From NCBI GenBank assembly GCA_043728105.1, contig JAYTMW010000057.1:1-40402 (forward strand): a stretch of 40,402 nt of DNA. The letters are read 5' to 3'. Position 1 is the stretch's first letter, and the number at the start of each line of letters is the position of its first letter. Source of the DNA: Saprospiraceae bacterium (GTDB lineage: Bacteria; Bacteroidota; Bacteroidia; Chitinophagales; Saprospiraceae). Made by a program: the position numbers and the translations under genes. Under the pieces are notes generated by a model. The model had not been told where the DNA came from and searched no databases. It was given only the letters and a program-made list of their open reading frames with translations. This document shows positions 24,116 through 40,068 of this stretch, piece by piece.

Positions 24116-24142
24116 GATTGTATTTTTAATTTTGAAGAAAAG

Positions 24143-24951: not shown

Positions 24952-24952
24952 A

Positions 24953-26683
24953 TTAAAATCTTATTTTTACAATGGTGCTTTCGCTTCCAGTTGTTGGGTG
25001 CTTGTATATTATTTCTATCGTTGGTGTTTGATAAGAATCAGATGTTGGATACCAATTGAAAATAAAGTTATCAACTTGAAACTTTAACCCGTTTCTACCA
25101 TCTGATATAGGTGTAACTCCAAAAGTATTTTTTAAATCATTCCAAACGTCTTGATCTTTGTTACTATTTGTTAACAGCCCTCCTTTATCATCAACATCCA
25201 ACTTGCTCAATAGTCTGTTTTTTTTCAAACTATCATAAACTTTTTGAAGTTTTTGGTCAATCCCTACAAAATAACGATTTTGCCAAAGACCGCTTAGTCG
25301 TTTATAAACTCTATTGATTTTAGTATAAACTTCTTTAATTTTCCAAAGTGAATTAACTGCTGTAAAACCAGGGAATTTTTTAGCAACAAATTTAAGAATA
25401 GTCCTTGTCACTTTGAATGATAACTTCTCAAGTTTCTGAGTACCATTTTCAAGTAATCCTCTTAATTCAATCAAATCATCTATCCCAAGTAAATTATTAA
25501 GCCATTCCTGTGCTCCTTCCGTAACTAAATCCAATAAAACATTTTTTAATGGGTCTCCACCGCTACCACTTGTCCCTAAGCTGTTGAGCGTATTAGCTAC
25601 CTCTGCAAACTCACTACTCTCATTCGTCAGTTTCTGATAAAGCAAAGCATCCGCTCGGAAATTAGCATCCATGCCTTCTTCTGTTGCTAACCCATCCACT
25701 TCCGCAAAGAGCTCTTTATCAGCATACAAGGCTTCAAATTCAAGAGGATCAAATCCTGCATTGATATACCTAATCTTTGCAGAAGCTTTTTCAATTGCGG
25801 CATCATTGGCTACCGCACCAAAAAACGAGTTATCAATTTCATTCGAGAGACTGCTACTCTGACTGGTTCCAGAAGTGCCCGAATTTTCTCCATCAGGATT
25901 AGTGGGATCTGTATTTGGTGATACAGATGGCTGACTATAGCCAAAACCCAAATTGGCGTAACCACCCCCTCCTTCTCCTCCTCCTGGATTTTGAATGAAA
26001 AATTTTGCAATTGTATTTACAGCACAAGTTGCCATACACCATATTTCATCCAAAATTCCAGCACCAGCTCCACCACTCCAGCAATTACAACTTGACCTGC
26101 CAAAATTATTATTGATAATATTTGCACTCAGATACGCTCGTCCAACAAATTTGCCATTTTCAATAGCAAGTATTTTCTGAATAAGTCCGTCCATTCCTAA
26201 TTGATAAAAAAGGCCTGAAAAGTCATCAACGGAGAATTTACTATGGGATAGTTTATAGTTTCTTGTCGGACGGTAAACTTGCAACCGGGCATCAATATTA
26301 TTCGATGAGTCTTTAAAGCACACTAACAAGTAATTCAGCTCCTTACCATCAAGAACCGAAATTTTACTTACTGGTACTACAACAATAGTGTTTGTTTTGA
26401 GATAAGTTGAAATTTTAGCATGAGACCACAATGGTGTAACGGACAATTGCTCATCAGTAAAAAATTTATCTGAGTGCTTAGTTGTATCGTTTGTTGTAAC
26501 TATTGATTTTGCAGAAGATGCAATTACCTTAGTTACTCCATACTTTGATTCAAACCACGTCTGAACCATCTCTACCGTCAAGGGATTGGCGATAGCTGTA
26601 GTGGGATTGCTTGATACTGAGGGGTCTGTTGCGTCTAAGTTTTTCGAACACCCCCAAAGCACCCCAACCAACAAAGCCGCCAA
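24953..26683 (-). CDS. Polymorphic-family lipoprotein: conserved N-terminal domain, Gly-rich linker, divergent C-terminal region
   Basis: 576-aa ORF from TTG 26683 with lipobox LWGC. Cys-rich patch CNCWSGG..WCMATC, then NPGGGEGGGGY and an S/T/G-rich linker. The C-terminal ~300 aa are unlike the paralog at 1..900. Confidence 0.75.
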   Translation of the reverse strand: MAALLVGVLWGCSKNLDATDPSVSSNPTTAIANPLTVEMVQTWFESKYGVTKVIASSAKSIVTTNDTTKHSDKFFTDEQLSVTPLWSHAKISTYLKTNTIVVVPVSKISVLDGKELNYLLVCFKDSSNNIDARLQVYRPTRNYKLSHSKFSVDDFSGLFYQLGMDGLIQKILAIENGKFVGRAYLSANIINNNFGRSSCNCWSGGAGAGILDEIWCMATCAVNTIAKFFIQNPGGGEGGGGYANLGFGYSQPSVSPNTDPTNPDGENSGTSGTSQSSSLSNEIDNSFFGAVANDAAIEKASAKIRYINAGFDPLEFEALYADKELFAEVDGLATEEGMDANFRADALLYQKLTNESSEFAEVANTLNSLGTSGSGGDPLKNVLLDLVTEGAQEWLNNLLGIDDLIELRGLLENGTQKLEKLSFKVTRTILKFVAKKFPGFTAVNSLWKIKEVYTKINRVYKRLSGLWQNRYFVGIDQKLQKVYDSLKKNRLLSKLDVDDKGGLLTNSNKDQDVWNDLKNTFGVTPISDGRNGLKFQVDNFIFNWYPTSDSYQTPTIEIIYKHPTTGSESTIVKIRF

Positions 26684-26695
26684 TAAACAAAAATT

Positions 26696-26722
26696 CCGAA
26701 AACGGCGTTACGCCGTTTTCGG
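26696..26722 (-). promoter_or_regulatory. Perfect hairpin with in-frame TAA between a 15-codon leader ORF (ATG 26755) and the lipoprotein frame
   Basis: ATG AAA AAA TTA ATG TGT TAT TTC GAT TTA TCG CCG AAA ACG GCG TAA CGC CGT TTT CGG AAT TTT TGT TTA TTG GCG.. is all one frame. The hairpin is identical to 913..939. Confidence 0.6.
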
Positions 26723-26950
26723 CGATAAATCGAAATAACACATTAATTTTTTCATAATGTATAAAAATTTTTAAATAAGTTGTTTTGTCAAAATTGACAC
26801 TTAAAAGTAACCTTTACTCTTCGAAGCCGTATTTTTTTATTGTTATTTTTCAAGAAAATACTTTAAAAATGGTATGAAAAACAATGAAATTTATAAAAAT
26901 ACTGAGGGGGTCGCTTTCTCACGGGCGATTAAAATCGCCCGCTATTGATG

Positions 26951-28096
26951 CTACACTTTCACCCACTTCTGATTACGACTACTCTCCAAAATGCGCTCAC
27001 AAATCAACAACTCACGATAGCCATCCGCAAAGGTCGGAAACGTTGGTTTTTCAGGTTGCTTACCCGCTTCAATTGCCGCATAAACCTCCTTAAACATTTG
27101 CTTCGATGTATCGGGAAAACCCTCATTGTGTCCCCCAGGGAACGACATAATATCACGTGCTTCGGGATACGCCAACGACGGGTCACGCATGAGGCTTTCG
27201 TTATAGCCGTCACGGTTGCCAATCCACAATTCATTGGGTGATTCGGAATTGAAAGCGAAGGTCTTTCTTGAACCCGAAATTTCTAATTTCAACTGATTTT
27301 TACGCCCCGCCGACACTTGCGAAACGGTCACAGAACCACGGTTGCCGTTGTCAAAACGGAGCAAAACGTTGGCGTGGTCTTCGGTCGTGATAGGCACATC
27401 GGCATAGTCTTCTGGTTTCAACATTTTGCCCGAATAGGTTTCAACGGGCTTCAAAGGCTTCTTGCGGGTCTTGTGAATGGTGTTAAAATCAGCCATCACT
27501 TCCACCGTTTTTAAGCCTGTTATGTATTCGATTACATCCATCAAATGCGAGCCAATGTCGGCAATCGCCCGTGAATCGCCCGACTTATCGGGTTCTAAAC
27601 GCCAGTTATAATCGGTTTCATAAAACAACCAATCTTGTAAATAAGACCCAATAATGGAATACACATCGCCCAAATCGCCCTTTTCACGCATCGCTTTCAT
27701 CTGACGCACCAACGGATAGTAACGCAAATTGAAATGCACGGCATTCACCAAACCTGTTTTGGCAGCCAAAGCCACCAATTCTTCTGCCTCATGCAAATCC
27801 TTGGCTAAGGGCTTCTCACACACCACATGTTTGCCCGCCAACAAAGCGGCTTTTGACTGCGCATAATGCAAAAAATTGGGCGTGCAAATATGGATAGACT
27901 GAATATCGTCTTGTTTCAATAAATTTTCAAAAGTATAGGCTCTCGAAATGCCCAATTGTGCCGCTTTTGACTCCGCCAATTCTTGCGTCACTTCGCACAA
28001 CGCCACGACTTCCACATTTGGTAAACGGCGCAATGCCTCTATGTGCGCTGGGCCGATAAATCCTGTACCGACCACCCCTACTTTAATTTTGCTCAT
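26951..28096 (-). CDS. Gfo/Idh/MocA-family NAD(P)-dependent oxidoreductase
   Basis: 381-aa ORF. VGVVGTGFIGPAHIEAL Rossmann, ICTPNFLH, CEKPLA. Confidence 0.85.
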   Translation of the reverse strand: MSKIKVGVVGTGFIGPAHIEALRRLPNVEVVALCEVTQELAESKAAQLGISRAYTFENLLKQDDIQSIHICTPNFLHYAQSKAALLAGKHVVCEKPLAKDLHEAEELVALAAKTGLVNAVHFNLRYYPLVRQMKAMREKGDLGDVYSIIGSYLQDWLFYETDYNWRLEPDKSGDSRAIADIGSHLMDVIEYITGLKTVEVMADFNTIHKTRKKPLKPVETYSGKMLKPEDYADVPITTEDHANVLLRFDNGNRGSVTVSQVSAGRKNQLKLEISGSRKTFAFNSESPNELWIGNRDGYNESLMRDPSLAYPEARDIMSFPGGHNEGFPDTSKQMFKEVYAAIEAGKQPEKPTFPTFADGYRELLICERILESSRNQKWVKV

Positions 28097-28162
28097 AATA
28101 GTTGATTTTTTTATTTGATAAATTAATTGATGTCTAAAATGAAGTAAAAGCCGTTTTTAGTA

Positions 28163-28350
28163 TTTTCCAAATTGGATATTTTTTTTAAGAAAAACGAAGA
28201 GGTAGGCGGTACAGCACTGGCTTAACATTTCGAATAATCTATAAGGAAAAACGTACACTTAAAAAGCCTCAAAATCGTGTAGTGAATTATGCCAATGCCG
28301 TACTGCCTACCTCTTCGTTTTTCCTAAAAAAAAATATCTAATTTAGAAAA
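28163..28350. mobile_element. MITE-like element with ~50-bp terminal inverted repeats (ttttccaaattRgatattttttttaRgaaaaacgaagaggtaggcRgtac)
   Basis: Left TIR 28163..28212, right TIR 28300..28350 (reverse complement, a few mismatches). No ORF. Related copy at 36987..37224 and a solo end at 30990..31036. Confidence 0.8.
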
Positions 28351-28449
28351 TCTTAAAACTACTTTCCGTTTATTGCAATAGTGCATTTTGAAATTTTACG
28401 TCAAAATACTGAGGGGGTAGTGTAGCGGCGGATTCATCCGCCGAATAAC

Positions 28450-28496
28450 ATAACTCATTGATTATCAACGCTTTCGGCGAATAAATTCGCCGCTAC
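28450..28496. repeat. Dispersed repeat ataactcattgattaNCAA..CTT(T)CGGCGAANAAATTCGCCGCTAC
   Basis: Second copy at 31468..31515. Contains the hairpin ggcgaaNaaattcgcc. Confidence 0.8.
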
Positions 28497-28558
28497 ATTG
28501 CGCCAAAATACTGAGAGGGTGCTTTTAATTATGGCGAATTCGCCATAATTAAAAAAAC

Positions 28559-29398
28559 TCACTCCAAATCATCAGGCAATTCAAGCGTCTTATCCCCTTC
28601 TTTCAAATGCTTAAAATTTTGAGCCGAAACTACTTTTTTACCCGATGTCTTTTCAAAATTCTTCCGTGCGCTTCCCGCCGATTTGCCACCCAATTGTGCC
28701 GCATCATGATTCTCTGGAAAGCCCTGTGCATCTTTATCCACGGCAATTTGGCGGGTCGCTTCTTCGCCCAGCATCGTGAAAATGAGTTCCAAATTGGTCA
28801 TGTGGTCACGCAAGTTTTCACGTTGCAAGCCTTTCAAATTTTTATATTCGGAAGGCGACAAACCAAACGTGGCTTTTGAAATCTCCGCCGTTAAAATCGA
28901 ATATTCAATGTTTTCTTTAACGCCCCGTGCTTTCCATTCATCCGTCAATTGTCGTCGAATGTCAATACTTTTCAAGCGGGTTTCAATCCACTCATCAGAA
29001 TACCCTTTTGCTCGGTACAATTCTCGAATACGCTCAATCCCCAACTCGGGGTTTTCGATTTCTTCAATGCGCTCATCCCCCACTTGCGCCAACCACAATT
29101 TAAAAGGCTCGGCTTTGGGCGAAGGGACGGACATAATAAGGCGAAACAAACCTTTGCGATGCGCACAATTCATGCGCTGCGTGCCGCCTTCCGTTGGTAC
29201 AGGAAGGGGGGTGACAATTTGTCCCCACCCTTTGGCGAGTTCGGTATCCCGCTTGCGCAACTTTTTCAGATAATCGGAAGCATTGGGCGTGTCTGTCAAA
29301 ACTTCAACAACATCGGTCAAAACAAACCACCATTGTTCGTCATGCCAAACCCGCCTAACGTTCTTTTCTTGAAAAATAACAATTTTATTTTCAGTCAT
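28559..29398 (-). CDS. Bro-N domain protein (BRO/antirepressor-like family)
   Basis: 279-aa ORF. N-terminal VRRVWHDEQWWFVLTDVVEVLTD, then SPKAEPFKLWLAQVGDERIEEIENPEL..YSDEWIETRL..LTDEWKARGV..ILTAEISKATFG, matching the conserved bacterial Bro-N family as I recall it. Confidence 0.7.
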   Translation of the reverse strand: MTENKIVIFQEKNVRRVWHDEQWWFVLTDVVEVLTDTPNASDYLKKLRKRDTELAKGWGQIVTPLPVPTEGGTQRMNCAHRKGLFRLIMSVPSPKAEPFKLWLAQVGDERIEEIENPELGIERIRELYRAKGYSDEWIETRLKSIDIRRQLTDEWKARGVKENIEYSILTAEISKATFGLSPSEYKNLKGLQRENLRDHMTNLELIFTMLGEEATRQIAVDKDAQGFPENHDAAQLGGKSAGSARKNFEKTSGKKVVSAQNFKHLKEGDKTLELPDDLE

Positions 29399-29496
29399 TT
29401 TAATCAGAATTGATAGAATTTTTAATGTTAATGAATGGAATTTTTCATCAATCCCTCTTCTATTTTAAAATGCTGCTGTTTTTTTGATTGGTTGAA

Positions 29497-29562
29497 TTGC
29501 TGAATTGTTGTATTGTTAAGTTGTTTTTCAACGGTAAAAACAATTTAACAATTCAGCAATAA
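29497..29562. repeat. Imperfect palindrome attgctgaattgtt..gttaaRttgttttt / aaaaacaatttaacaattcagcaat
   Basis: Read directly. Lies between the Bro-N start and the MFS stop, abutting a 13-mer copy at 29563. Confidence 0.7.
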
Positions 29563-29585
29563 AATACTGAGGGGGTGGCACTTGC

Positions 29586-30773
29586 TTATGCTACTGATTT
29601 CTCTTTAACAAAGAAATAAAGCCCAGCAAATGCTACTACTAATAAAATAGGTAACAAATTGATACTACCTAAAACACTTTGACCTGATTGCAATTCAGTC
29701 ATCCCTGCTATTTTATTTGCGTCAAGTTTTGGCCCAATAAAAAAGGTCTGATATGCCCAGTTACCCAACATACCCACGCCACCCATAAGTGACAAGCCCA
29801 ATGCACCAGATTTAGGGATTTTTTCGTTCACAAAACCCAACATTGTGGGCCAGAAGAAACAACATCCTGCCGCAAAAACAGCTGCTGCCAAATAAAGCAT
29901 ATTCCCTTCCGTTGATCTCAACAAATATAAGCCTAAAACTGCCAAAACCGAAGAAACCAATAATACTCTAATGGGATTTAAAGCGTGAATAAAGGGGCCG
30001 CCGAAAAATCGTCCAACAGCCATAATGCCGTTTACCAAAGCCAAAATCAAAAGCGAATTTGCCCCTGCATTGCCCAAAAGTTTATCTACCCATTGACCCG
30101 TACTAAGTTCTGTATTGGCTGTAAAAAACATACAAACTGCCATAATCAAAAACAAAGGCGTAGCACATGCTGCAAACATTTCACTAAATGATGTGCCTGA
30201 TGTAACTCGTTCCGTTTGTGGAAATTCTTGACCCCAAAACATATATCCATAAACTACGGTTGGTATCAAAATCAAAGCAACTTGCAATTCCCAACCTAAT
30301 CCAATAGATTTCATCCCCGCAGCCAACAATGCCCCTATAACTAATCCGCCAGGAAACCAAACGTGAAAACGATTCAACATACCAATCTTATTATCCGTGT
30401 ACATCGAAGCAACGAGTGGGTTACAAACAGCTTCAACCATACCATTCGCAAAACCTACGAGGAATGTTGAGATAAAAAGTGTCCAAAAGCCACCCGCAAA
30501 AATGGTCAAAACAAGACCCAAAAGATGTGCACCAAATGCTACCCACATCCATTTTTTCATACCCAATAAATCTACGAAAAAACCGCCAAGCGTTGTCGCT
30601 ACGGGAAAGCCGAAAAACGCCATACCTGCAATCCAGCCCAATTCGGTATCCGTCAGATTAAATTGTTTGCCTAAATCGCCGAGCATCCCCGCACGAATCG
30701 CAAAAGTCATTGATGTAACTAATAATGCCACACATGAAGCATTAAAGAGACGAGATTTGTTAATTACTGCCAT
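29586..30773 (-). CDS. MFS transporter (sugar-type by context)
   Basis: 395-aa ORF, about 12 hydrophobic segments, MFS-like loop motifs. Confidence 0.75.
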   Translation of the reverse strand: MAVINKSRLFNASCVALLVTSMTFAIRAGMLGDLGKQFNLTDTELGWIAGMAFFGFPVATTLGGFFVDLLGMKKWMWVAFGAHLLGLVLTIFAGGFWTLFISTFLVGFANGMVEAVCNPLVASMYTDNKIGMLNRFHVWFPGGLVIGALLAAGMKSIGLGWELQVALILIPTVVYGYMFWGQEFPQTERVTSGTSFSEMFAACATPLFLIMAVCMFFTANTELSTGQWVDKLLGNAGANSLLILALVNGIMAVGRFFGGPFIHALNPIRVLLVSSVLAVLGLYLLRSTEGNMLYLAAAVFAAGCCFFWPTMLGFVNEKIPKSGALGLSLMGGVGMLGNWAYQTFFIGPKLDANKIAGMTELQSGQSVLGSINLLPILLVVAFAGLYFFVKEKSVA

Positions 30774-30989
30774 TTTCTATCTGTTGTTTAATTTTAAATA
30801 AATAAAGGTGGTTATTCTTAAATTCTTATAAATTCTGTCCAGTTACCTTAGTGTCAATTTGACAATTATTCCCAAAAATAGATATTTCTTGTTTTCTACC
30901 AATTTTCTAAGCCTTTTTTTCTAAAATTAAAGGAATTATATTTGGAAATTTTAGAAATCGGCGAATTGCACAAAAAGAAATTGGTTTTC

Positions 30990-31036
30990 GAGCATCCCAT
31001 ATTAGATATTTTTTTTTTAAGAAAAACGAAGAGGTA
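30990..31036. repeat. Solo terminal repeat of the MITE-like family
   Basis: attagatatttttttttttaagaaaaacgaagaggtag with no matching right end before 31550. Confidence 0.7.
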
Positions 31037-31131
31037 GTTTCCTCCCTGCTTTGATTTAGTCTATCTTTTAAATGGAAGGTTTAGAGTTTTGTGAGTTGGA
31101 CATATCGTAGCGACATTTATGCACCATATAT

Positions 31132-31444
31132 GATTAAAACATCTATCATCTTGAAACCACCGATTTTTAATCGGGGGGTAAGGAATTACCACTAATGCCA
31201 TCTATCTTCTTTTCAAAAACATCACATCTAATACACGCAATATGTGATGTTTTTAAATAGAAGATAGATGGCATTAGTGGGTTTGCATGACCCCCGATTG
31301 ATGAATTTAAAATAATTAACCGTCATTATCTTTTCAGATTTGCAAGGCAAATCATTACAAAACAGCAATGTTATTATGACGGTAATTTATTTTAAATTCA
31401 TAAATCGGGGGTTACAAGATGATAGATGTTTTCAATCGCATAGG
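31132..31444. repeat. Nested palindromic element, copy B, with a second hairpin element inserted in one of its loops
   Basis: Shares gattaaaacatctatcatcttgaaaccaccgatt and the central hairpin with copy A. Its right-hand cccccgatt|aaatcggggg hairpin is split by a ~105-bp insert that is itself a long hairpin (gatgaatttaaaataattaaccgtcattat .. attatgacggtaatttattttaaattcat). Confidence 0.85.
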
Positions 31445-31467
31445 TAGAATTTACCTGCCGAATCTTT

Positions 31468-31515
31468 ATAACTCATTGATTACCAATGACTTCGGCGAAC
31501 AAATTCGCCGCTACC
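31468..31515. repeat. Second copy of the ataactcattgatta..ggcgaaNaaattcgccgctac repeat
   Basis: Aligns with 28450..28496. Confidence 0.8.
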
Positions 31516-31549
31516 TGAAAAACTGCAAAACTGACAAACTGCAAAACGC
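31514..31549 (-). repeat. CAGT-box array g (inverted orientation): ACTG boxes at 31522, 31530, 31538, with degenerate boxes at 31514 and 31546
   Basis: cctgaaaaactgcaaaactgacaaactgcaaaacgc, strict 8-bp phasing. Confidence 0.75.
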
Positions 31550-32332
31550 TTAAAGCATTTTGATTTTCATATTCCGATACCACACCTTATTACCGTGGTC
31601 TTGCAGCGCAATATGCCCTTTCATCATCGAGCCAAACTTTGGCATATCTTTAAATTTACTGCCTTTTATCATTTCTTTCCACGCAGGTGCATTCATATCA
31701 TATCCAACGACCTTCACGCCATTGAGCCAATGCTCTACTTTTCCTTTGTTTTGAACCAATTTTGCATTGTTCCACTCCAAAGCGGGTTTCACGGTTTCTT
31801 GGCTGCATGACTGCAAATCGTATAAATCGCCGGCACGGTGCTTGATGATTTTTGCGTCGGGGTGGCATTTATTGTCTAAAACTTGCATTTCAGGGCCAGA
31901 ACGCCACACAAATTCTAACTTCGGGTCGTCAATGATGTTATATATAATGCCTGAGTTGCCGCAAGTGTCAATTTTCCAATCCACTTGCAATTCAAAATTT
32001 TCGTAACTATCGGCCGTGACAATATCGCCGCCATCGGCATACCACTTGCCGTCTTGCTTTTTCTTCACGTTCAAGTGCATGGATTGTTCGGCTGAGTCAA
32101 CAATCCAATCAGGGCCCAAAGTGGTTTTACCGAAGTTGTGCCATCCAGCAAATGATTTGCCATCAAAAAGGAGTTTATAGCCTTGTTTTGTTTCTTCATC
32201 CGTCAACACATTGGCGGCGGCGGTCACAATTTTTTCAACAACTTTGGTTTCGACAGTCGTAGTGGTCTTTGTGTCACTGTTTTGGCAAGATGCAAATGCC
32301 ACGATAAGCATCATAAAAGCGGTTTTTTTCAT
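31550..32332 (-). CDS. DUF1080 (3-keto-disaccharide-hydrolase-like) lipoprotein
   Basis: 260-aa ORF with lipobox FASC. GWHNFGK..WIVD.., YENFELQVDWKI..GNSGIIY, HIALQDHG..VWYRN. Confidence 0.8.
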   Translation of the reverse strand: MKKTAFMMLIVAFASCQNSDTKTTTTVETKVVEKIVTAAANVLTDEETKQGYKLLFDGKSFAGWHNFGKTTLGPDWIVDSAEQSMHLNVKKKQDGKWYADGGDIVTADSYENFELQVDWKIDTCGNSGIIYNIIDDPKLEFVWRSGPEMQVLDNKCHPDAKIIKHRAGDLYDLQSCSQETVKPALEWNNAKLVQNKGKVEHWLNGVKVVGYDMNAPAWKEMIKGSKFKDMPKFGSMMKGHIALQDHGNKVWYRNMKIKML

Positions 32333-32439
32333 AATCTTCTTTGTTGTTTGATGAAATGATTAAAAATTTAGCTATCAGCTATGAGCAATCAGTAGTCAGC
32401 TTTTTTACACAATAAATTCTTAAAGAGTTTGTGATTAGT

Positions 32440-32471
32440 AGCTGAATGCTCATTGCTGAAAGCTGATGGCT
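32440..32471. repeat. Second copy of agctgaNNgctcattgctgaaagctgaNNgct
   Basis: Aligns with 21500..21531. Confidence 0.75.
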
Positions 32472-32611
32472 TTTAAAATGGATTGCGAAAGATAGTTTTA
32501 AAATCGAATTACCTACCCTACTCTATCCTCATTTTTTAAAAATTTGTCGTACACCTTATTTAAAAGGACAAAAAACAGGCAATTGATGGGAAAATACTGA
32601 GGGGGTGCTTT

Positions 32612-32657
32612 CACTTTTTCAGTTTTGCAGTTTATCAGTTTTTGAGGTTTGCAGTTT
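32612..32657 (+). repeat. CAGT-box array a: boxes at 32620, 32628, 32636, (32644 degenerate), 32652
   Basis: tttttcagttttgcagtttatcagtttttgaggtttgcagttt, 8-bp phasing, directly after a 13-mer copy. Confidence 0.8.
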
Positions 32658-32778
32658 AATGTTAAATATTCGAGATGTACGCCACCTTTTGGTAGAATAT
32701 AATCCTTGTGTTTTTGTGGTATATGTTTAGTATAATTTATATTTTAAAATAAAAAATTTAAAGTTTATTAACGTTTTA

Positions 32779-32809
32779 TTTGCATAATACTTTTTTTATG
32801 GTACATTTG
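32779..32809 (+). promoter_or_regulatory. Candidate Bacteroidota-type promoter (TTTG ..19 nt.. TAcaTTTG)
   Basis: TTTG at 32779..32782 and TACATTTG at 32802..32809 match the -33/-7 consensus TTTG/TAnnTTTG. The region is AT-rich, so chance matches are possible. Confidence 0.3.
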
Positions 32810-32815
32810 ACACAT

Positions 32816-33069
32816 AATTAATTCTTCTTTATACAAGCAATCACAGAATTTTAAATTTTTGCAAATAAACAAACTGTCCAACACAACTGACTTCACTCAA
32901 CCAAACCAGTAAAAAATCAATCAAAAAACCTTATTGGAAATCAAGAGACATTCTGAGTATGTAACGTACTTGAATGATTTAATGAACAATTTTTATTGTC
33001 CTATAACAATTGTGTCCTATTGAATTTAATTGAAGCGCAAACAGTTTAAATACTGTTTGCGTTTTTTTT
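32816..33069 (+). ncRNA. Candidate ~250-nt non-coding transcript (function unknown)
   Basis: Bounded by the candidate promoter and a canonical terminator. Longest internal ATG ORF is 13 codons. Contains the direct repeat ttgtcctat x2. Confidence 0.25.
33036..33069 (+). terminator. Canonical rho-independent terminator
   Basis: cgcaaacagt-ttaaat-actgtttgcg (10-bp stem, 6-nt loop) followed by T8. Confidence 0.75.
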
Positions 33070-33093
33070 GTGCTAATACTGAGGGGGTATCTT

Positions 33094-33139
33094 GCGTTTT
33101 TCAGTTTTGCAGTTTCTACTGTTTTCAGTTTTACAGTTT
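33094..33139 (+). repeat. CAGT-box array b: boxes at 33102, 33110, 33118 (inverted ACTG), 33126, 33134
   Basis: tttttcagttttgcagtttctactgttttcagttttacagttttt, 8-bp phasing, directly after a 13-mer copy. Confidence 0.8.
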
Positions 33140-33158
33140 TTCCGTCTCAAAAAGGCTA

Positions 33159-33327
33159 TCATTGCGAGTGCTACGAAGCAATCTGCCATGTTTCTTCCGA
33201 TTCCCTTTCTCCATGTTTTTTCAATTGCTAAAATTAAGGGTATGCCCTCTTACAAAAATTTAAGTGTGGGGAAAAGGAGAATCGTAGGTCAAATGACAGA
33301 TTGCTTCGTCGTTCCTCCTCGCAATGA
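33159..33327. repeat. Inverted-repeat pair of the cattgcgag..acgaagcaatc type
   Basis: tcattgcgagtgctacgaagcaatctgccat (33159..33189) versus atgacagattgcttcgtcgttcctcctcgcaatga (33293..33327). It yields the spurious peptide DCFVVPPRNDT, which I recall seeing in repeat-derived ORFs of other genomes. Confidence 0.7.
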
Positions 33328-33361
33328 CACGTTGATTTGGCAAAAGTGTGGGTGCGTTTTT

Positions 33362-33399
33362 CATTATTTCAGTTTCACAGTTTTTGCGTTTTGCAGTTT
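33362..33399 (+). repeat. CAGT-box array c: boxes at 33370, 33378, (33386 degenerate), 33394
   Basis: tcattatttcagtttcacagtttttgcgttttgcagtttt, 8-bp phasing. Confidence 0.75.
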
Positions 33400-33447
33400 T
33401 ATATAAATCATTTATTATGTCTTCTTTAATTTAAAAGAAACAAAAAC

Positions 33448-33477
33448 ACGTTTTTCAGTTTCGCAGTTTTTCAGTTT
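33448..33477 (+). repeat. CAGT-box array d: boxes at 33456, 33464, 33472
   Basis: cgtttttcagtttcgcagtttttcagttt, 8-bp phasing. Confidence 0.75.
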
Positions 33478-33865
33478 AAATCAATTTCCATTTTGAAAAA
33501 AGAAATTCAGGACTGAATAAAAACAGTCAAACAATCAAAGTTTAATTTTTTGATTAAAGCCAAATTGAAATTTAATCAAAAATGAAGGTTTGAAGCATGA
33601 GGATTTTGATAAAACTCAAAACAGTTGTCAAAAAAACAATTTCGTGGAAATACGGCATTCCTGCCATTGGGGACTCACAAATTGTAGTTGATACCTCCAA
33701 AACGCCTTAAATTCAAAATAAACAATCAATTTGTGCCAAAAAATGCTTAATTAAAAACATTCCGTGTATCCATTTAGACTTTGGAAGCCTTTTCGCTATT
33801 GGATGTCCAATCCTATTCCTTTTCTCACTTTTCCCTTTTTACCTTTTCTCCTTTCTTCCTTTTTG

Positions 33866-33911
33866 CAGTAAAAAAGTTTTTACTTTTTTCAGTTAATCAG
33901 TTTTGCAGTCT
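33866..33911 (+). repeat. CAGT-box array e overlapping the parA promoter: boxes at 33866, 33890, 33898, 33906
   Basis: gcagtaaaaaagtttttacttttttcagttaatcagttttgcagtc. All boxes fall on one 8-bp register. Confidence 0.75.
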
Positions 33912-33931
33912 CAAAAATCGTTTTATATTTG
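33902..33931 (+). promoter_or_regulatory. Candidate parA promoter (TTTG ..18 nt.. TAtaTTTG)
   Basis: TTTG 33902..33905 and TATATTTG 33924..33931, 30 nt upstream of the parA ATG. The -33 element abuts the CAGT box at 33906. Confidence 0.45.
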
Positions 33932-33960
33932 CACCATAAAACTTTAAACGAAGTATTTTT

Positions 33961-34614
33961 ATGAAAATAGGTGTCTCAAATTTAAAAGGTGGCGTAGGTA
34001 AAACGACCATTGCTCAAAATCTTGCAGTTTGCTTCGCACACATGGGTTACAAGGTGTGCATCGTGGATACGGATACGAACCAAAACTCGCTTGCATGGTC
34101 GGGTGTGCGGGACGAAAGTTTGCCTGGCATTTTGGTTGTGGGCGCAACGGATTCAAAAGCCTTGAACAAAACCGTGGACAAACTCGACCGTGACCACGAG
34201 ATTGTTATCATTGACGGAACGCCTTCGTTGTCAGAAATGACGACTCGGATTATCCTATCAAGTGATATTCTTTTAATTCCCATTTTGCCAAGCGGACATG
34301 ATTTCAGGGCCATGACTCAATTTGTGGAACGCTATGAACAAGCAAAAGAGTTTAAAGCCGAAATTCCCGCTTATTTCATTCTCAATCAATTTTCTGAAAA
34401 TCTCAATGTGCATCAAGATATGAAAAACATGCTGACGCAATTTGAATTGGGCATTATGGAAACCACCGTCAACAAGCGGGTTTCGTATGTCCGCACAGGT
34501 ATTGAGGGCAAGGGTGTGTATGAGTCAAACGACGATAAGGCAAAGGAGGAAATGGTAAAATTGACCCAGGAGGTTTTGAAATTAGCGCATCAATATAAAT
34601 TCGTGGAAGATTGA
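33961..34614 (+). CDS. parA: ParA-family partition ATPase (small type Ib-like)
   Basis: 217-aa ORF with deviant Walker A NLKGGVGKTT. DTDTNQNS, IIDGTP. Confidence 0.9.
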   Translation: MKIGVSNLKGGVGKTTIAQNLAVCFAHMGYKVCIVDTDTNQNSLAWSGVRDESLPGILVVGATDSKALNKTVDKLDRDHEIVIIDGTPSLSEMTTRIILSSDILLIPILPSGHDFRAMTQFVERYEQAKEFKAEIPAYFILNQFSENLNVHQDMKNMLTQFELGIMETTVNKRVSYVRTGIEGKGVYESNDDKAKEEMVKLTQEVLKLAHQYKFVED

Positions 34615-34710
34615 ATTAGGATTATAAGGATCTTAGAGGGATTTAATAGGATTTTTACCAACAGAAAAAATCCTATTAAATCCTTCTAAAAATCCTTATA
34701 ATCCTAATTC
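34613..34710. repeat. 98-bp imperfect palindrome immediately after the parA stop
   Basis: gaattaggattataaggatcttagagggatttaataggattttt - accaacag - aaaaaatcctattaaatccttctaaaaatccttataatcctaattc. Confidence 0.85.
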
Positions 34711-34759
34711 AATTTTACATAAAACATTCACAATCAATCATTTATATAATTTCGTTACA

Positions 34760-35140
34760 ATGACAAAAGATAAAAAAACAGATTACAGCAAATTAAGCCT
34801 CGGCGCAAAAGTTCCGATGAAAGCCGCTACCATAGCCGCAGTTGAACCCGTAGCACCAAAACCTGTTGCGGCAAAAGCCGTGAAAGCAAAAGTGGAAAAG
34901 GTAGAAAAAGCAATCGAATCGCCTAAACAACCTACTAAAATGGAAGCTGCCGTGAAAGCAATTCACGCCACGCCACTCCCTCGCATGATGAAACCTACCA
35001 AAACCGAAGAACGCACTTTGCGGGTCACTTTGGATATTCCGTTGTCGCTTCATGCCCAAATACGCACCAAAACTTTTCAAGAAGGCATCTCTATGAAAGA
35101 ATATTTCTTGGAAATGGCAAAAAAGGAAATGGGGATTTAG
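34760..35140 (+). CDS. ParG-like partition/centromere-binding protein (disordered A/K/P-rich N-terminus plus C-terminal ribbon-helix-helix)
   Basis: 126-aa ORF downstream of parA. The C-terminus RTLRVTLDIPLSLHAQIRTKTFQEGISMKEYFLEMAKKE fits a beta-strand/helix/helix RHH pattern. Confidence 0.6.
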   Translation: MTKDKKTDYSKLSLGAKVPMKAATIAAVEPVAPKPVAAKAVKAKVEKVEKAIESPKQPTKMEAAVKAIHATPLPRMMKPTKTEERTLRVTLDIPLSLHAQIRTKTFQEGISMKEYFLEMAKKEMGI

Positions 35141-35178
35141 TTATTAGTTATTAGTTATTAGTTATTAGTTATTAGTTT
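35137..35178 (+). repeat. Tandem heptad array (TTAGTTA) x6
   Basis: ttagtta repeated five times exactly, sixth unit ttagttt. Starts within the stop codon of the RHH gene. Confidence 0.9.
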
Positions 35179-35191
35179 GAAACGTGATTTT

Positions 35192-35253
35192 GCGTTTTGC
35201 AGTTTTGCAGTTTATCATTTTTACAGTTTTTCATTTAATCATTTTTGCAGTTA
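35192..35253 (+). repeat. CAGT-box array f: boxes at 35200, 35208, 35224, 35248, with degenerate GCGT/CATT boxes at 35192, 35216, 35232, 35240
   Basis: tgcgttttgcagttttgcagtttatcatttttacagtttttcatttaatcatttttgcagtt. Eight consecutive positions of one 8-bp register. Confidence 0.8.
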
Positions 35254-35374
35254 AGAAGCCTATTTTTCTATGTTTGATTAGCCTTATTTTTTGTTTTTGC
35301 TTAAAAAAGACAAAAATGTGGCTCAAATCTCGAAAAATACTGAGGGGGTAGGGGATAACGAACATAAAATTATT

Positions 35375-36361
35375 ATGGAAGAGAATTTATTTAATTTAGA
35401 TAATTTCAATAGCTTAGAACCTAAGAAAAATAGGACGAAAGCGGAAGGCGGGGTGAGCAAAATCACGCAGCGCATTCTTGAAGGTGCGGTTGCGGTGCGG
35501 TTGGATAGGGCGAGCATTGAAGATGCGATTTTTCAGCATTCGGTGTTGTGCCAAACGTTTTTGCCCTATCGCAACCCCGGTGACGAAACCAAAATTTGGC
35601 AACAAAAACAAGGCAATGTCAGTTTGGCGGTGCAAGCCAACCACGTTTTGAATCCTGAAACGGGCGAATTTGAGTTCGTGGGTCTGCCTTATGGGACAAA
35701 ATCCCGCTTGATTTTGGCGCATATCAACTCCGAAGCGGTGAAAACCCAGAACCGTTTGATTGACGTGGAGGAGAGTATGACCGCTTTTATCAAAAAATTG
35801 GGCTTGAATACCGATGGGCGAACCATCAAAGAAGCGAAGGAACAATTGCGCCGTTTGACCGCCTCAATTATCAGTATTGGTTATTCCGATGGTGAAAAAG
35901 GGATGCAAGTGGATTTAAAAATCGTGAAAGCCTTTGACCTTTGGTTTCCAAAAGACCAACGCCAACGGGTGCAATGGACTTCAAAAATCCAACTCACCGA
36001 AGAATATTTCACGAGTTTGATAAACCATGCGATTCCTTTGGACGAAAGGGCGTTGGCGGCGTTGTCTCATAATGCGATGGCACTCGATATATATGCGTGG
36101 CTTGCGCAGAGGTTGCACCGCATTGATTTTAATAAACCACAATTTGTTGCATGGCAAAACCTCAAAGAGCAATTCGGACAAGGCTATGACCGCATGGATA
36201 AGTTCAAAGAGGTGTTTCGCCGCACTTTGAAAATCGTGTTGACGCAATACCCGACTGCCAAATTGTCAGAGGATAAGAACAAAGGTTTTTATCTCTACAA
36301 TTCGCCTTCGCCGATTCCACCAAAGATTATTCACTTGATTGAAAACCCGCCAAAGTTCTAA
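35375..36361 (+). CDS. repA: Plasmid replication initiator protein (Replication initiator protein A / RPA-like RepA)
   Basis: The ORF track starts at 35291, but that extension reads through the 13-mer repeat. ATG at 35375 (MEENLFNL..) is preferred. LPYRNPGDE..GLPYGTKSRLILAHINSEAVKTQNRLIDVEESMTAFIKKLGL..DGRTIKEAKEQLRRL matches my recollection of the RPA family. Iterons follow directly. Confidence 0.75.
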   Translation: MEENLFNLDNFNSLEPKKNRTKAEGGVSKITQRILEGAVAVRLDRASIEDAIFQHSVLCQTFLPYRNPGDETKIWQQKQGNVSLAVQANHVLNPETGEFEFVGLPYGTKSRLILAHINSEAVKTQNRLIDVEESMTAFIKKLGLNTDGRTIKEAKEQLRRLTASIISIGYSDGEKGMQVDLKIVKAFDLWFPKDQRQRVQWTSKIQLTEEYFTSLINHAIPLDERALAALSHNAMALDIYAWLAQRLHRIDFNKPQFVAWQNLKEQFGQGYDRMDKFKEVFRRTLKIVLTQYPTAKLSEDKNKGFYLYNSPSPIPPKIIHLIENPPKF

Positions 36362-36683
36362 CGTGCAGTTTGGTGGAGTTTAGCCAAAAAAAAGGGATAA
36401 ATACTGAGGGGGTGACTTTTCCACGTGCAGTTTGGTGGAGTTTGGTTAAAAACAAGGGCATTTTAAGGCTTTTAAAAATAATCCACGTGCAGTTTGGTGG
36501 AGTTTAGGGGTAAAAAGGAGTAAGCGTGTCTTTATTCACGTGCAGTTTGGTGGAGTTTAGGTGAAAAAGCGATATTCCAACTATAACTCTTCCTTTCAAA
36601 AAGTTATTCACGTGCGGTTTGGGAGTATTATTACCAAAAAGCACGTGTAGTTTGGGATATACGTCACGTGCAGTTTGGTGGAC
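36360..36683 (+). repeat. Seven direct iterons (consensus CACGTGCAGTTTGGTGGAGTTTAG): candidate oriV
   Basis: Copies start at about 36360, 36422, 36484, 36538, 36609 (cacgtgcggtttgggag), 36642 (cacgtgtagtttggga) and 36665. All share one orientation, with spacings 62, 62, 54, 71, 33 and 23 bp. An AT-rich stretch with three CCTATA boxes follows (36687..36770). Confidence 0.85.
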
Positions 36684-36817
36684 AAACCTATATCTTGTTT
36701 TCCTATAATTATTTACCTATACAGGCGTTTGTTTTTAAAAAATTTTGAAAGAAAAAAGAAAAGTTAAAACATGGGGGCGGCGGCGGTTTTTTATAACTTT
36801 TTGAAAGGGTAGGGTAT

Positions 36818-36866
36818 AGTTAATGAGTAATAAGTAATAAGCAATGAGTGATAGGCAATGAGTAAT
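36818..36866 (+). repeat. Degenerate heptad array (RAGYRAT) x7
   Basis: agttaat gagtaat aagtaat aagcaat gagtgat aggcaat gagtaat. AGT-N4 periodicity, as in 35137..35178. Confidence 0.75.
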
Positions 36867-36986
36867 AAATCCATTTTTTGATTAGAAGCAATGAAAATAT
36901 GATGCCTTTGGCTTCATCAAGCTGAAAGCATGACTGAGGGGCCTCCTTTTTGAAAATGCTTACATTTGGAATATGCTTTCTTATAT

Positions 36987-37224
36987 CAGATATTTTTTTT
37001 AGGAAAAACGAAGAGGTAATTTCGCCCGTTCATCTTCTAACGTATCTTTTAGAATTTGGCGGAAGGACATTCATCCATATTTTAACTTTTAATCGCAAAG
37101 GTCATGTAAAAACGACCAAAATACTGAGGGGCCCCTTTTGCCAAATTTTAAAAGATACGTTAGAAGATGAACGGGGCAAATTACCTCTTCGTTTTTCTTA
37201 AAAAAAATATCTAATTTGGAAAAA
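36987..37224. mobile_element. MITE-like element, second full copy; almost the entire element is one long hairpin
   Basis: Ends cagatattttttttaggaaaaacgaagaggtaat / attacctcttcgtttttcttaaaaaaaatatctaatttggaaaa. Inner arms 37024..37061 versus 37140..37177. The centre carries aatactgaggggcc. Confidence 0.8.
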
Positions 37225-37473
37225 TCGAAAACCGCAGGTTTCGTTGTATAAAAAACAGGGTGAACGCCATTGATATAAAAAATCATCGTTTCAGTATAGA
37301 AAAACCACGATTTAGTCACTTTTTAAGGCGTATCAAGTCAATAACTGTTACTTTCATGCGTTAAAGACTGTACATTTGTCCTGTTAAATCCGTTATTCGT
37401 CGGATGAATACAAGATAAAATTTTCAATAACTTAATAAACAATACGAAATTAGCTAAAACCTATAAATTTATC

Positions 37474-40068
37474 ATGTTTAAGAAACCTAAAAGCAACATC
37501 CTTTTGAGGATTCATTTTTTTTGTGCCTTTTTCCTACTTACCATTACAGCGTTTGCTCAAAAAGCAACAATTGTAAGGGGACGAGTAACTGATGAAAAAG
37601 GCAAAGAGGCTTTGCCTTACGTCAATGTTCAATTCGATGGCACTTCCATCGGTGCAACGTCTGATATTGACGGCAATTTTTATTTAGAAACGAAAACCTC
37701 GGTTTCTAAGCTCAAAGTCTCCTACGTGGGCTATCGAACCCAAACGGTTGCCATAAATCAAGGTCAAATGAATGAAGTTTCCGTGAAATTGGTGGAAGGC
37801 TCAAACGATTTGCAAGTGTTGGAGGTGAAGGTTGCGAAGTATCGCAACAAAGGCAATCCCGCCGTTGAGTTAATCAAAAAAGTAATTGACCACAAAGATC
37901 AAAACCGCAAATCAGGTTTTAAATCTTACCAATACAACAAATACGAGAAGGTAGAATTTGCCCTAAACGGCATTTCGGACTCGTTTCGGAACAACCGTTT
38001 CATGAAAAAAGTGGATTTTGTCTTTCAAATTGCCGACACTAATAAGGCTTCGGGAAAAGTCAATTTACCGTTTTATTTGCGTGAACGTCTTTCAGATGTC
38101 TATTACCGCAAAGACCCAAAAGCTGAAAAAGAGCTTGTAAAAGGGGAACATACCACCAAAATGCCCGAGACTTTGGATGATGCGGGTATTTCCGATTACA
38201 TCAATAATCTTTATCAAGAGGTTGATATTTACAACAACCAAATTGAGTTGGTGCGGGTCAATTTTGTGAGTCCATTGAACCCCATTGCGCCTACTTTTTA
38301 CCGTTTTTACATCCAAGATACAAGCGTAGTGAAGGGCGTAAGTTGCGTGCATCTTTATTTTGCCCCCCGCAATAAAATGGATTTGGCGTTCATTGGTCAC
38401 ATGTGGGTGTCGTTGGAAGACTCATCTTATGCCGTCCGAAAAATAGAAATGGGTGTTCCAAAAGACATCAATTTGAATTTTGTGAGAGAAATGGAGATAC
38501 GCCAAGAATTTGATTGGGTAGAGACACCTGACAGTGTTGGTGGCGGTAAAAGTCGTGGCTTGATGCTGTCAAAAGACATTGCTTTAATGGATTTTGCGGT
38601 GGCAAAAGAAGGTCAAAAATCCATAATGGGTACGAAAACAGTCTCTTTTAAAGATTATCAAATCAATCAGCCTATCAAAAACGAGGTTTTTAATGGGTTA
38701 AATAAGGTGATTATGGTCGGTGAAGCTCGACATCAAGATGACTCATTTTGGGTTGAAAGTCGTCATGATTCACTTAACAAACATGAACAAGGCATCTTTA
38801 AAACGATGGATAGCCTCGATAATAGCAAGCCTTATCGGCGTTTTCTTTGGTACACTCATTTGCTGACGACGGGTTCTGCCCGAGTGGGCGTGGTTGATTT
38901 GGGGCCCATGATGTCGCTTTATAGTTTCAACCCCGTGGAAGGTTCGAGGTTTCGTTTAGGCGGTCGTACCAATCCAAGATTTAGCGAAACTGTATTGCTG
39001 GAAGGCTACGCAGCGTATGGTATGAGAGACAATCGTTGGAAGTATTTTGCAGGCGCACGTTTCTTTTTAGGGGGCAAAGCAACGGATAGAGATTCGTTGA
39101 CCCAAGCTCGAATCTGGTATCAAAACGATGTGCGGGTGCCTGGGCAAGACCTTCTTTTTATTCAAGAAGATGCGTTCTTTGCGTCATTTCGTCGAGGTGT
39201 CAACAACAAGATATTTTATCAGACTATGGCAGGTGTAGAGTTTCAAAAATTGGGAAATGGCATTACATATACGGTGGGTATGAAAAAACTCATCACTCGC
39301 CCTTCCGATTCGTTGATTTTTAACCGTGAGGTAGTGGATAGAACAACGCCAATACCGATTGAAAGCATTAATTCGACCGAATTGAACCTTAGTATTCGTT
39401 ATGCACCCAACGAAATTGTATATCAAGGAGCGAGAAATCGTCGGACTTTGCGGTCAAAATATCCGATTATTCAAGCGTGGTATTCTTACGGTATCAAAGA
39501 CTTTTTAGGCGGTGACTATGAATACCATAATCTTCGACTTAGAGCAAAAAAGACTTTTTATTTTCCCGTTGCGGGCTTTGCAGATGTGACCCTCGAAGGT
39601 GGAAAAGTATTTGGTCAATTGCCATATCCGTTGCTCATTCCGCACCGTGCCAACCAACTTTATTACAATATGGTTGACTCTTATAATTTGATGAATTTCT
39701 TAGAATTTGTGAGTGATAAATACGCTTCGGTCAACGTCTATTACAACATGGGCGGCTTTTTATTAAACCGTATTCCTTTGATTCGTCAGTTAAAATGGCG
39801 TGAAGCATTCACTTTCAAAGCTGTTTGGGGCAGTTTAGATGATAAAAATATACCAAGTAAAGAAAATGGCATGTTGCAATTTGCGAAAGCGGAAGACGGT
39901 AGCCCATATACTCATTCGTTGGAAAAAGCACCTTATATTGAAGCCTCTGTGGGCATTTCTAATATCTTCAAATTATTGCGTGTTGACTACATTCGCCGCT
40001 TGAATTATTTGAATTTGCCGAATGTAGATACTTGGGGTATTCGGGCGAGAATTGCTGTTTCTTTCTAA
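37474..40068 (+). CDS. DUF5686-like outer-membrane protein with carboxypeptidase-regulatory-like N-terminal domain
   Basis: 864-aa ORF with a signal peptide. IVRGRVTDEKGKEALPYVNVQFDGTSIGATSDIDGNFYLE. Length and architecture as I recall for DUF5686 proteins. C-terminal aromatic residue (..RIAVSF). Confidence 0.65.
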   Translation: MFKKPKSNILLRIHFFCAFFLLTITAFAQKATIVRGRVTDEKGKEALPYVNVQFDGTSIGATSDIDGNFYLETKTSVSKLKVSYVGYRTQTVAINQGQMNEVSVKLVEGSNDLQVLEVKVAKYRNKGNPAVELIKKVIDHKDQNRKSGFKSYQYNKYEKVEFALNGISDSFRNNRFMKKVDFVFQIADTNKASGKVNLPFYLRERLSDVYYRKDPKAEKELVKGEHTTKMPETLDDAGISDYINNLYQEVDIYNNQIELVRVNFVSPLNPIAPTFYRFYIQDTSVVKGVSCVHLYFAPRNKMDLAFIGHMWVSLEDSSYAVRKIEMGVPKDINLNFVREMEIRQEFDWVETPDSVGGGKSRGLMLSKDIALMDFAVAKEGQKSIMGTKTVSFKDYQINQPIKNEVFNGLNKVIMVGEARHQDDSFWVESRHDSLNKHEQGIFKTMDSLDNSKPYRRFLWYTHLLTTGSARVGVVDLGPMMSLYSFNPVEGSRFRLGGRTNPRFSETVLLEGYAAYGMRDNRWKYFAGARFFLGGKATDRDSLTQARIWYQNDVRVPGQDLLFIQEDAFFASFRRGVNNKIFYQTMAGVEFQKLGNGITYTVGMKKLITRPSDSLIFNREVVDRTTPIPIESINSTELNLSIRYAPNEIVYQGARNRRTLRSKYPIIQAWYSYGIKDFLGGDYEYHNLRLRAKKTFYFPVAGFADVTLEGGKVFGQLPYPLLIPHRANQLYYNMVDSYNLMNFLEFVSDKYASVNVYYNMGGFLLNRIPLIRQLKWREAFTFKAVWGSLDDKNIPSKENGMLQFAKAEDGSPYTHSLEKAPYIEASVGISNIFKLLRVDYIRRLNYLNLPNVDTWGIRARIAVSF

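Follow-up and report, generated by a model that had tools for sequence, protein, structure and literature searches.

The window analysed here is a 40,402-nucleotide (nt) stretch of DNA from a Saprospiraceae bacterium (contig JAYTMW010000057.1, positions 1 to 40,402). It carries seven arrays of CAGT tetramer boxes in 8-bp phase around a predicted partition locus, which consists of parA, a gene for a 126 amino acid (aa) protein that is the predicted centromere-binding protein, and the initiator gene repA. The arrays are real and non-random, they lie only close to the par genes, and they co-occur with the pair of ParA and the small protein across Rep families. By analogy with ParG and omega, they are quite likely the recognition sites of the small protein, which displays a predicted ribbon-helix-helix (RHH) domain. 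The same analogy favours, with less assurance, a role of the arrays as both centromere and operators. The system is most likely a type Ib partition system, with a ParF-like ParA and a ParG/omega-like binding protein, situated on a large RepA_C replicon from a Saprospirales-like Bacteroidota member.

The sequence CAGT-N4-CAGT-N4-CAGT is found four times in the window, every time within positions 31522–33909, and in 0 of 100 dinucleotide-preserving shuffles. Same-strand CAGT pairs on the + strand show peaks at spacings of 8, 16, 24 and 32 bp (10, 7, 7 and 3 pairs, respectively), with 0–1 pairs at neighbouring spacings. A tolerant scan was made for runs of CAGTTT-like units in 8-bp register, three or more units being counted as an array. 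All arrays that it shows in the window fall in 31518–35255, the shuffle mean being 0.02 arrays, and the remaining ~36.7 kb of the window has no array of three or more CAGTTT-like units. The consensus of the seven arrays is TTTGCAGT, in 8-bp register. Together they contain 25 exact CAGT boxes, one inverted ACTG box and approximately 15 variants with 1–2 mismatches. GCGT or ACGT opens most arrays, and CATT, CACT, CCGT and AAGT are also found. The spacers are T-rich (TTTG, TTTT, TTAT), and none of the arrays shows a register slip. A first-pass annotation of this DNA had described seven CAGT arrays with strict 8-bp phasing; the spacing peaks, the shuffles and the register of the boxes bear this out.

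Array a (31518–31549, minus strand) consists of GCGT and three CAGT boxes and lies just beyond the 3′ end of a DUF1080 gene. Arrays b to g are on the + strand. Array b (32612–32659; CACT, three CAGT, GAGG, CAGT) is found ~280 bp upstream of the DUF1080 start codon. It is followed by array c (33094–33149; GCGT, two CAGT, inverted ACTG, two CAGT, CCGT), array d (33354–33401; GCGT, CATT, two CAGT, GCGT, CAGT) and array e (33448–33479; ACGT and three CAGT). Array f is situated directly upstream of parA. An array at this site had been seen in the first-pass annotation, but its extent was given too short, as six further in-register units are present at 33818–33865. The parA-upstream block therefore consists of 12 phased units, 33818–33913. 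The first half (33818–33865) contains six pyrimidine-rich boxes, five CCTT and one CACT, in the same register, and the second half (33866–33913) contains CAGT, AAGT, ACTT and three CAGT. This block is the predicted main operator and centromere. Array g (35192–35255; GCGT, two CAGT, CATT, CAGT, two CATT, CAGT) lies between the RHH gene and repA. The arrays reported earlier over the parA promoter and between the RHH gene and repA thus both exist, but their lettering was off by one: they are the sixth (33866) and seventh (35192) arrays rather than e and f.

A 65-nt segment that starts with the 13-mer AATACTGAGGGGG is present in two 78%-identical copies, which hold arrays b and c; the 13-mer lies at 32593, before array b, and at 33075, before array c. 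The earlier caveat that two arrays directly follow a copy of an abundant 13-mer is thus correct. Small open reading frames inside the arrays (33092–33406 and 35184–35351) are regarded as repeat artefacts.

The last two CAGT boxes of array f overlap a candidate parA promoter of the Bacteroidota type, predicted from the sequence of the + strand (−33 TTTG at 33902–33905, a gap of 18 nt, −7 TATATTTG at 33924–33931). The −33 and −7 elements resemble the Bacteroidota promoter consensus. The last boxes of array g overlap a candidate repA promoter on the + strand, predicted in the same manner (−33 TTTG at 35244–35247, 21 nt, −7 TATGTTTG at 35269–35276). A TAnnTTTG-like box is found 8–20 nt past the last CAGT box upstream of parA in most of the related loci as well (among them L013, L021, L024, L025, L148 and L149).

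The comparison set consists of 15 further loci, given here as L numbers, which were picked by homology of the small protein (31–89% identity). The small-protein gene is directly downstream of parA in the window and in all 15 loci. CAGT-type arrays flank the ParA/small-protein pair in 15/15 as well, whatever the Rep family.

Close relatives (L013, L015, L017, L018 and L019) have a small protein of 55–89% identity. The gene order parA, small gene, RepA_C gene is kept in all five, and the DUF1080 gene is found upstream in four; the L015 sequence starts just before parA. In these loci TTTGCAGT arrays are situated beyond the DUF1080 gene, upstream of parA, often in the gap between parA and the small gene, and in the gap between the small gene and repA. 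The counterpart of array a is at the same position in L013 (2290), L017 (2738), L018 (69) and L019 (918), and there it lies 60–260 bp upstream of the next minus-strand gene, which is an MFS transporter or another gene. The parA-upstream array of the close relatives ends in a conserved CAGTCTCAAAAA. The array f ending CAGT-TTTG-CAGT-CTCAAAAA is common to L013, L017 and L019, and L015 has CAGTCTGAAAAA. Counterparts of array g are found in L013, L015, L017, L019 and L145. Arrays are also present upstream of the RHH gene in L015, L017, L019, L021, L024 and L025.

Distant relatives (L021, L024, L025, L148, L149, L146, L105 and L151) have a small protein of 36–49% identity, with its gene directly after parA. 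L021, L024 and L025 carry a Rep_3 initiator rather than RepA_C, yet display TTTGCAGT arrays around parA and the RHH gene. L022, also with Rep_3, shows degenerate CCGT, ACGG and CAGT boxes with the 8-bp phase kept, and L147 has a similar mix of CCGT, ACGG and CAGT boxes in 8-bp phase. L022 and L024 contain ~20-bp iterons unrelated to the arrays. Instead of standing in 8-bp tandem phase, the TGCAGT boxes of L152, a locus of the most distant subfamily (small protein P0098), form inverted pairs 10–11 bp apart, at 1880–1990 and 2900–2960. The box is the same, in a naturally varied spacing. A protein-pattern scan of metagenome contigs gave six loci, including L150, which is a ParD-type antitoxin and not a member of the family.

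Over 12 loci, phased CAGT pairs are found at 3.0 per kb from −700 to +300 of the pair and at 0.21 per kb elsewhere, i.e. 14-fold denser near the pair, and nearly all outlier pairs lie within ~2.5 kb of the ParA/RHH genes. The pooled consensus of 160 phased boxes from these 12 loci is T77% T93% T88% G74% followed by CAGT. With blastn, the non-coding conservation between the window and the distant loci consists of the arrays only, plus the iterons in RepA_C loci. The repA region of Haliscomenobacter hydrossis plasmid pHALHY02 (L011, 12.9 kb fetched) contains a RepA_C gene with no par pair nearby and shows no phased CAGT pair. Thus the arrays travel with the ParA and RHH pair and not with the initiator, as the Rep_3 loci keep them and the pHALHY02 region, without the pair, has none. 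The first-pass annotation had assigned the arrays to the ParA/RHH pair as operator and centromere sites of the ParG type, an assignment that these comparisons of sequence support. It had also named occurrence of the arrays throughout the genome as a finding that would speak against this; this lineage shows no such spread, as the rest of the window has none and phased pairs are sparse away from the pair in 12 loci.

parA (33961–34614, + strand) encodes a small, ParF-like Walker-type partition ATPase of 217 aa, in which an N-terminal DNA-binding domain is absent. It scores 171 bits with NF041546 (ParA_partition), just below the 180-bit cut-off. The solved structures most closely related to it are 5U1G, 'ParA' (E = 1.7e-25), and TP228 ParF, 4DZZ (E = 2.4e-25). 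Both match end to end, the ParF match covering ParA residues 4–208. By these matches the window ParA is classed as a ParF-like type Ib ATPase.

The gene for the 126-aa protein is found at 34760–35140 on the + strand. Family alignments show three parts: a conserved N-terminal tail, a variable Ala/Pro/Lys/Val linker and a near-invariant C-terminal domain. The tail reads M-x-KDKKTDYSKL-x-LG in the window protein and MAKDKKTDYSKLTLG in its family form. The C-terminal domain of the window protein is of RHH type, ERTLRVTLDIPLSLHAQIRTKTFQEGISMKEYFLEMAKKE, and the family pattern is ERT[LK]RVTLDIPLSLHAxIRxxTFxxGI[ST]MKxYFLxLAKKD. This gives a strand and then two helices joined by a G-x-S/T turn, as in RHH proteins. 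R88 and T90 are invariant across the family, down to 31% identity. Two RHH antitoxins are hit by the family profile: one of the ParD family from a metagenome contig (96.9% probability, E = 1.7e-10), and RK2 ParD (E = 7e-5), the latter over the RHH region, ParD residues 2–34. The RK2 ParD sequence was checked against PDB entry 2AN7, ParG against 1P94 and omega against 1IRQ. Distant family members show sub-threshold matches in the same C-terminal region, to ParD (E = 5e-4 to 8e-4) and to CopG_antitoxin (E = 1.5e-3 to 9e-3). In a monomer model, the two C-terminal helices have a predicted local distance difference test (pLDDT) score of 74–87 and the N-terminal half is disordered. The top fold matches are mostly RHH proteins: Arc, ParG (1P94), VapB, CopG, AvtR and TacA. 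From profile and model the C-terminal domain is, with moderate confidence, RHH-type and ParD-related.

A hypervariable tandem repeat is present at the stop codon of the RHH gene, (TTAGTTA)x6 at 35137–35177 in the window. At the same position L013 has an 8-bp repeat, (GATTACGA)x6 at 6385–6442, and L019 has a GGGTAGAGA-like repeat at ~3745–3795. The position of this repeat is constant, and its sequence is different in each relative.

A mechanism can be proposed on the model of ParG and omega, which are the source for direct binding, one dimer per box, centromere activity, repression and the role of the N-terminal tail. One RHH dimer would read each (G)CAGT box through its two-stranded beta-ribbon, where the invariant R88 and T90 are predicted to lie. 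Dimers on boxes 8 bp apart would bind cooperatively over the T-rich spacers and coat each array. The coated arrays, chiefly the 12-unit block before parA, would form the partition complex, which would recruit ParA and stimulate its ATPase through the conserved N-terminal tail. Since the −33 regions of the candidate parA and repA promoters are overlapped by the last boxes, the RHH protein would also repress its own operon and the initiator gene. Relatives carry a further array before the RHH protein's own gene and one before a flanking gene. Segregation and copy control would thereby be coupled.

Several points weigh against these assignments. The case rests on co-occurrence and analogy. A Pfam search of the 126-aa protein gives no match, and hhalign detects no homology with ParG (6% probability, E = 0.0057) or with omega (1% probability). 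The Pfam ParG family is matched neither by the window protein nor by the distant members; with the 6% probability, this places the protein outside the ParG sequence family, and it is ParG-like by its predicted role and class of fold. A profile search of solved structures shows nothing up to E = 10. The overall confidence of the monomer model is low (pLDDT 62), and the fold matches all have E > 1, none being significant; both are expected of a fold that, like RHH, takes shape only in the dimer. Across the family neither the CAGT box nor the predicted DNA-reading residues vary, leaving nothing to covary. The sole variation of the box, more CCGT/ACGG in the TKRITLDIP subfamily (L022, L147) and the inverted pairs 10–11 bp apart in L152, is too little to interpret. 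The promoter assignments are weak by themselves, since they rest on a short consensus that is frequent in AT-rich DNA. Finally, plasmid pSP2_3 of Runella sp. SP2 (L012) contains an 8-bp phased CAGT-ATTT array at 6367–6417 (CAGTATTT x3, then ACTGATTT and degenerate units), situated between a 117-aa open reading frame and an antitoxin/PIN operon, and despite this array it shows no ParA and no homologue of the RHH protein.

The initiator gene repA (35375–36361, + strand) encodes a RepA_C-family protein (PF04796, E = 6e-24). Its start codon is uncertain, as gene callers also give 35318. The protein is 61% identical to RepA of H. hydrossis pHALHY02 and 66% identical to a Runella plasmid RepA, and the par pair is absent from both of these plasmids, the two closest by RepA. 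By these RepA identities the replicon belongs in Bacteroidota. A predicted replication origin of the iteron type follows the gene (36361–36685, + strand). It consists of four full iterons, CACGTGCAGTTTGGTGGAGTTTAG, spaced 62, 62 and 53 bp, and three degenerate copies, with an AT-rich stretch at 36686–36770 after the degenerate copies. These iterons are distinct from the CAGT arrays and are conserved in L015, L017 and L019. A copy of the 13-mer is found between iterons 1 and 2.

If the arrays belonged to a dispersed family of short tandem repeats in the intergenic DNA of Bacteroidota, microsatellite-like, mobile or recognised by a host factor, their proximity to par would be incidental. A scan of species-representative genomes with the 17-mer TTTTGCAGTTTTGCAGT, which cannot measure how often arrays and par genes co-occur, gave at least 119 8-kb blocks, and among the matches listed only L105 holds a ParA/RHH pair. 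Many of the matches are two-unit and of the size expected by chance. At least about 55 of the listed blocks come from a few Bacteroidales assemblies (JTS-AC371, MFD05442.bin.1.81, MFD04716 and MFD01299), where at least 21 near-perfect (TTTTGCAG)n arrays of 5–14 units are found on megabase-sized contigs (e.g. L028, L032, L079, L095, L116, L120, L129 and L134). These runs have no common flanks and none of the 8-kb blocks fetched contains a par gene, so that CAGT-type octamer arrays are not diagnostic of a par locus, a further point on the side of dispersal together with the duplication of arrays b and c behind an abundant 13-mer. Some of the Bacteroidales runs open with ATG or code for a signal-peptide hydrophobic core (QFCSFAVLQF-type). 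This suggests that they are repeats of another kind, perhaps slipped-strand phase-variation repeats whose unit is 8 nt. They are near-perfect, whereas the par arrays are degenerate and of mixed orientation, like protein-binding arrays. The non-par matches in Saprospiraceae assemblies are sporadic, two- or three-unit and mostly within coding sequence. Moreover, neither the other ~36.7 kb of the window nor the flanks of 12 loci contain such arrays, and in relatives whose other intergenic DNA has diverged beyond detection the arrays still stand at the same sites with respect to parA, the RHH gene and the following gene. The Bacteroidales runs leave the linkage in the window's lineage standing, and a dispersed repeat is quite improbable.

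Binding by RepA_C itself, with the arrays as auxiliary iterons or copy-control ('handcuffing') sites, is highly improbable. The iteron core CACGTGCAGTTTGG (also written GCAGTTTGG and GTGCAGTTTGG) resembles the array unit TTTGCAGTTTTG, so that some cross-talk of the arrays with RepA is possible, which counts against a role confined to the RHH protein, and array g is directly upstream of repA. But the same arrays accompany the pair in the Rep_3 replicons L021, L024 and L025, and degenerate boxes do so in L022; L022 and L024 have their own, unrelated iterons. L152, a RepA_C locus, has very different iterons with no CAGT box (TGATACAAACTTCACGTGGA), yet retains TGCAGT boxes around its par genes. 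The pHALHY02 repA region is without a phased CAGT pair, and a unit of 8 bp is far shorter than known iterons. Arrays as RepA iterons were rejected, being present with both RepA_C and Rep_3 and accompanied by separate iterons in the window, L022, L024 and L152. A third possibility is that the arrays are operators only, through which the RHH protein represses parA, repA and neighbours, the centromere being elsewhere, in the heptad repeat at 35137–35177 or in a palindrome. The overlap of the arrays with candidate promoters would fit this, as would the presence of several other repeats at the locus. These other repeats are unconserved, however: the repeat after the RHH stop codon differs in each relative and the palindromes are mobile. 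In addition, the operator arrays of TP228 and pSM19035 have centromere activity (PMC3130281, PMC9499535), and a 12-unit block before parA exceeds what repression alone would need. A function as operators only is decidedly unlikely. It is also unlikely that the RHH protein is a replicon-wide regulator which, through at least seven arrays, couples segregation and initiator expression with flanking cargo genes, including those of the syntenic DUF1080 hydrolase and of the MFS transporter, on a replicon of 107 kb or more. In a wider form of this proposal, the Bacteroidales (TTTTGCAG)n runs may be bound by chromosomal relatives of the RHH protein.

Dispersal of the arrays over 3.7 kb had been called unusual in the first-pass annotation. 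The dispersal is real, but it is partly secondary, through insertions of hairpin elements and the local duplication that gave arrays b and c. Long hairpin-forming palindromes, resembling miniature inverted-repeat transposable elements, are found at 31136–31432, 32369–32472, 33162–33322, 34604–34719 and 36983–37215. Rfam shows only sub-threshold matches of these hairpins to plant microRNA precursors and no real RNA family. The 34604–34719 hairpin sits between parA and the RHH gene in the window and is mobile, as its counterpart in L017 is at a different site (3836–3953). Arrays c and d are held apart by the 33162–33322 hairpin. Relative to L013, the window has ~480 extra bases between the MFS gene upstream region and array a. 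In L017 the entire gap between DUF1080 and parA is less than 800 bp and still contains three arrays.

The 13-mer AATACTGAGGGGG (extended form aAAATACTGAGGGGGt) is present in 27 copies in the 40 kb, from 2244 to 40135, where 0.01 would be expected; examples are at 32593, 33075, 35336 and 36400. The copies share no common flanking sequence, and related loci carry copies too. They are oriented in strand blocks, + at 2244–5286, − at 5555–21614 and + at 23174–40135. Their density and strand pattern are reminiscent of uptake signals or of signals with a skewed orientation.

The DUF1080 gene, a 3-keto-disaccharide hydrolase gene at 31550–32332 on the minus strand, keeps its place beside the par/rep module in L013, L017, L018 and L019, the most distant small protein among these being 58% identical. 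An MFS transporter gene is beside it in the window (region 28559–32332), in L013 and in L017, and a Bro-N gene lies beyond in the window and in L013. Conserved cargo beside a replication core is unusual. The contig of one relative has a length of 107 kb, which suggests a large plasmid or chromid.

To our knowledge, how Bacteroidota maintain plasmids and chromids has hardly been studied. A literature search turned up no RHH-type partition system described from this phylum, and a search of ~72,500 catalogued plasmids gave no homologue of the small-protein family. The locus is thus the first such case found for Bacteroidota, with a protein family absent from Pfam and from catalogued plasmids. It yields a protein together with its predicted DNA site, written in a clear 8-bp code (TTTGCAGT), more than 12 natural variants, including the subfamily with 10–11 bp spacing, and the prediction that partition is linked to the control of repA. 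These could extend the ParG/omega model of RHH dimers that coat repeat arrays. Possible uses are the stabilising of Bacteroidota vectors and the spotting of plasmid-derived contigs in metagenomes.

The ACTC boxes bound by ParG of TP228 are degenerate, stand in direct or inverted orientation and are set apart by 4-bp AT-rich spacers, and each takes one dimer (PMC3130281). The OF operator holds eight of them and the parH centromere 12, all upstream of parF, and both OF and parH are centromere-active (PMC3130281). The present locus shares with TP228 a small ParA without a DNA-binding domain, ParF being among its two best solved relatives. It also shares a small binding-protein gene directly downstream of parA, with a predicted flexible N-terminal tail and C-terminal RHH domain in its product, and degenerate tetramer boxes, direct and inverted, with 4-bp AT-rich spacers. 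A block of ~12 units upstream of parA, with promoter-proximal boxes that overlap the (candidate) promoter, is a further likeness. Differences from TP228 are found in the box, (G)CAGT rather than ACTC, and in the spacers, here T-rich on one strand. The protein of 126 aa has a long low-complexity linker, whereas ParG has 76 aa, and the similarity of the two is insignificant. There are seven sites over 3.7 kb, including the repA promoter, in place of one upstream block, and the host phylum is Bacteroidota.

Omega of the inc18 plasmid pSM19035, part of the delta-omega partition and global regulator system, binds runs of 7–10 contiguous 7-bp repeats lying over the promoters of copS, delta and omega; to activate the ParA ATPase fully takes at least four of them in a row (PMC9499535). 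As in that system, an RHH protein, whose binding is here predicted, is combined with contiguous short repeats, which in omega take one dimer each. Separate arrays are likewise found, here by position only, at the candidate promoters of repA and parA and, in relatives, upstream of the binding-protein gene. The beta-strand motifs are similar, T-V-R-V-R-A-D-L in omega and T-L-R-V-T-L-D-I here. Unlike pSM19035, the unit is an 8-bp CAGT octamer and not the 7-bp WATCACW heptad, ParA is ParF-like and not delta-like, the similarity to omega is insignificant, and there is no linked epsilon/zeta toxin-antitoxin module. The ParD RHH antitoxins (PF09386; RK2 ParD, 2AN7) are the closest detectable relatives of the C-terminal domain, aligned over the beta-strand and both helices. 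Unlike ParD, the small protein is encoded in a partition operon with no adjacent toxin gene, and its RHH domain is C-terminal, behind a conserved tail and linker. The locus is a well-supported further example of type Ib RHH partition, with no new mechanism. It combines the 4+4 geometry of ParG and a ParF-like ATPase with the spread over several promoters seen with omega, including that of a replication gene.

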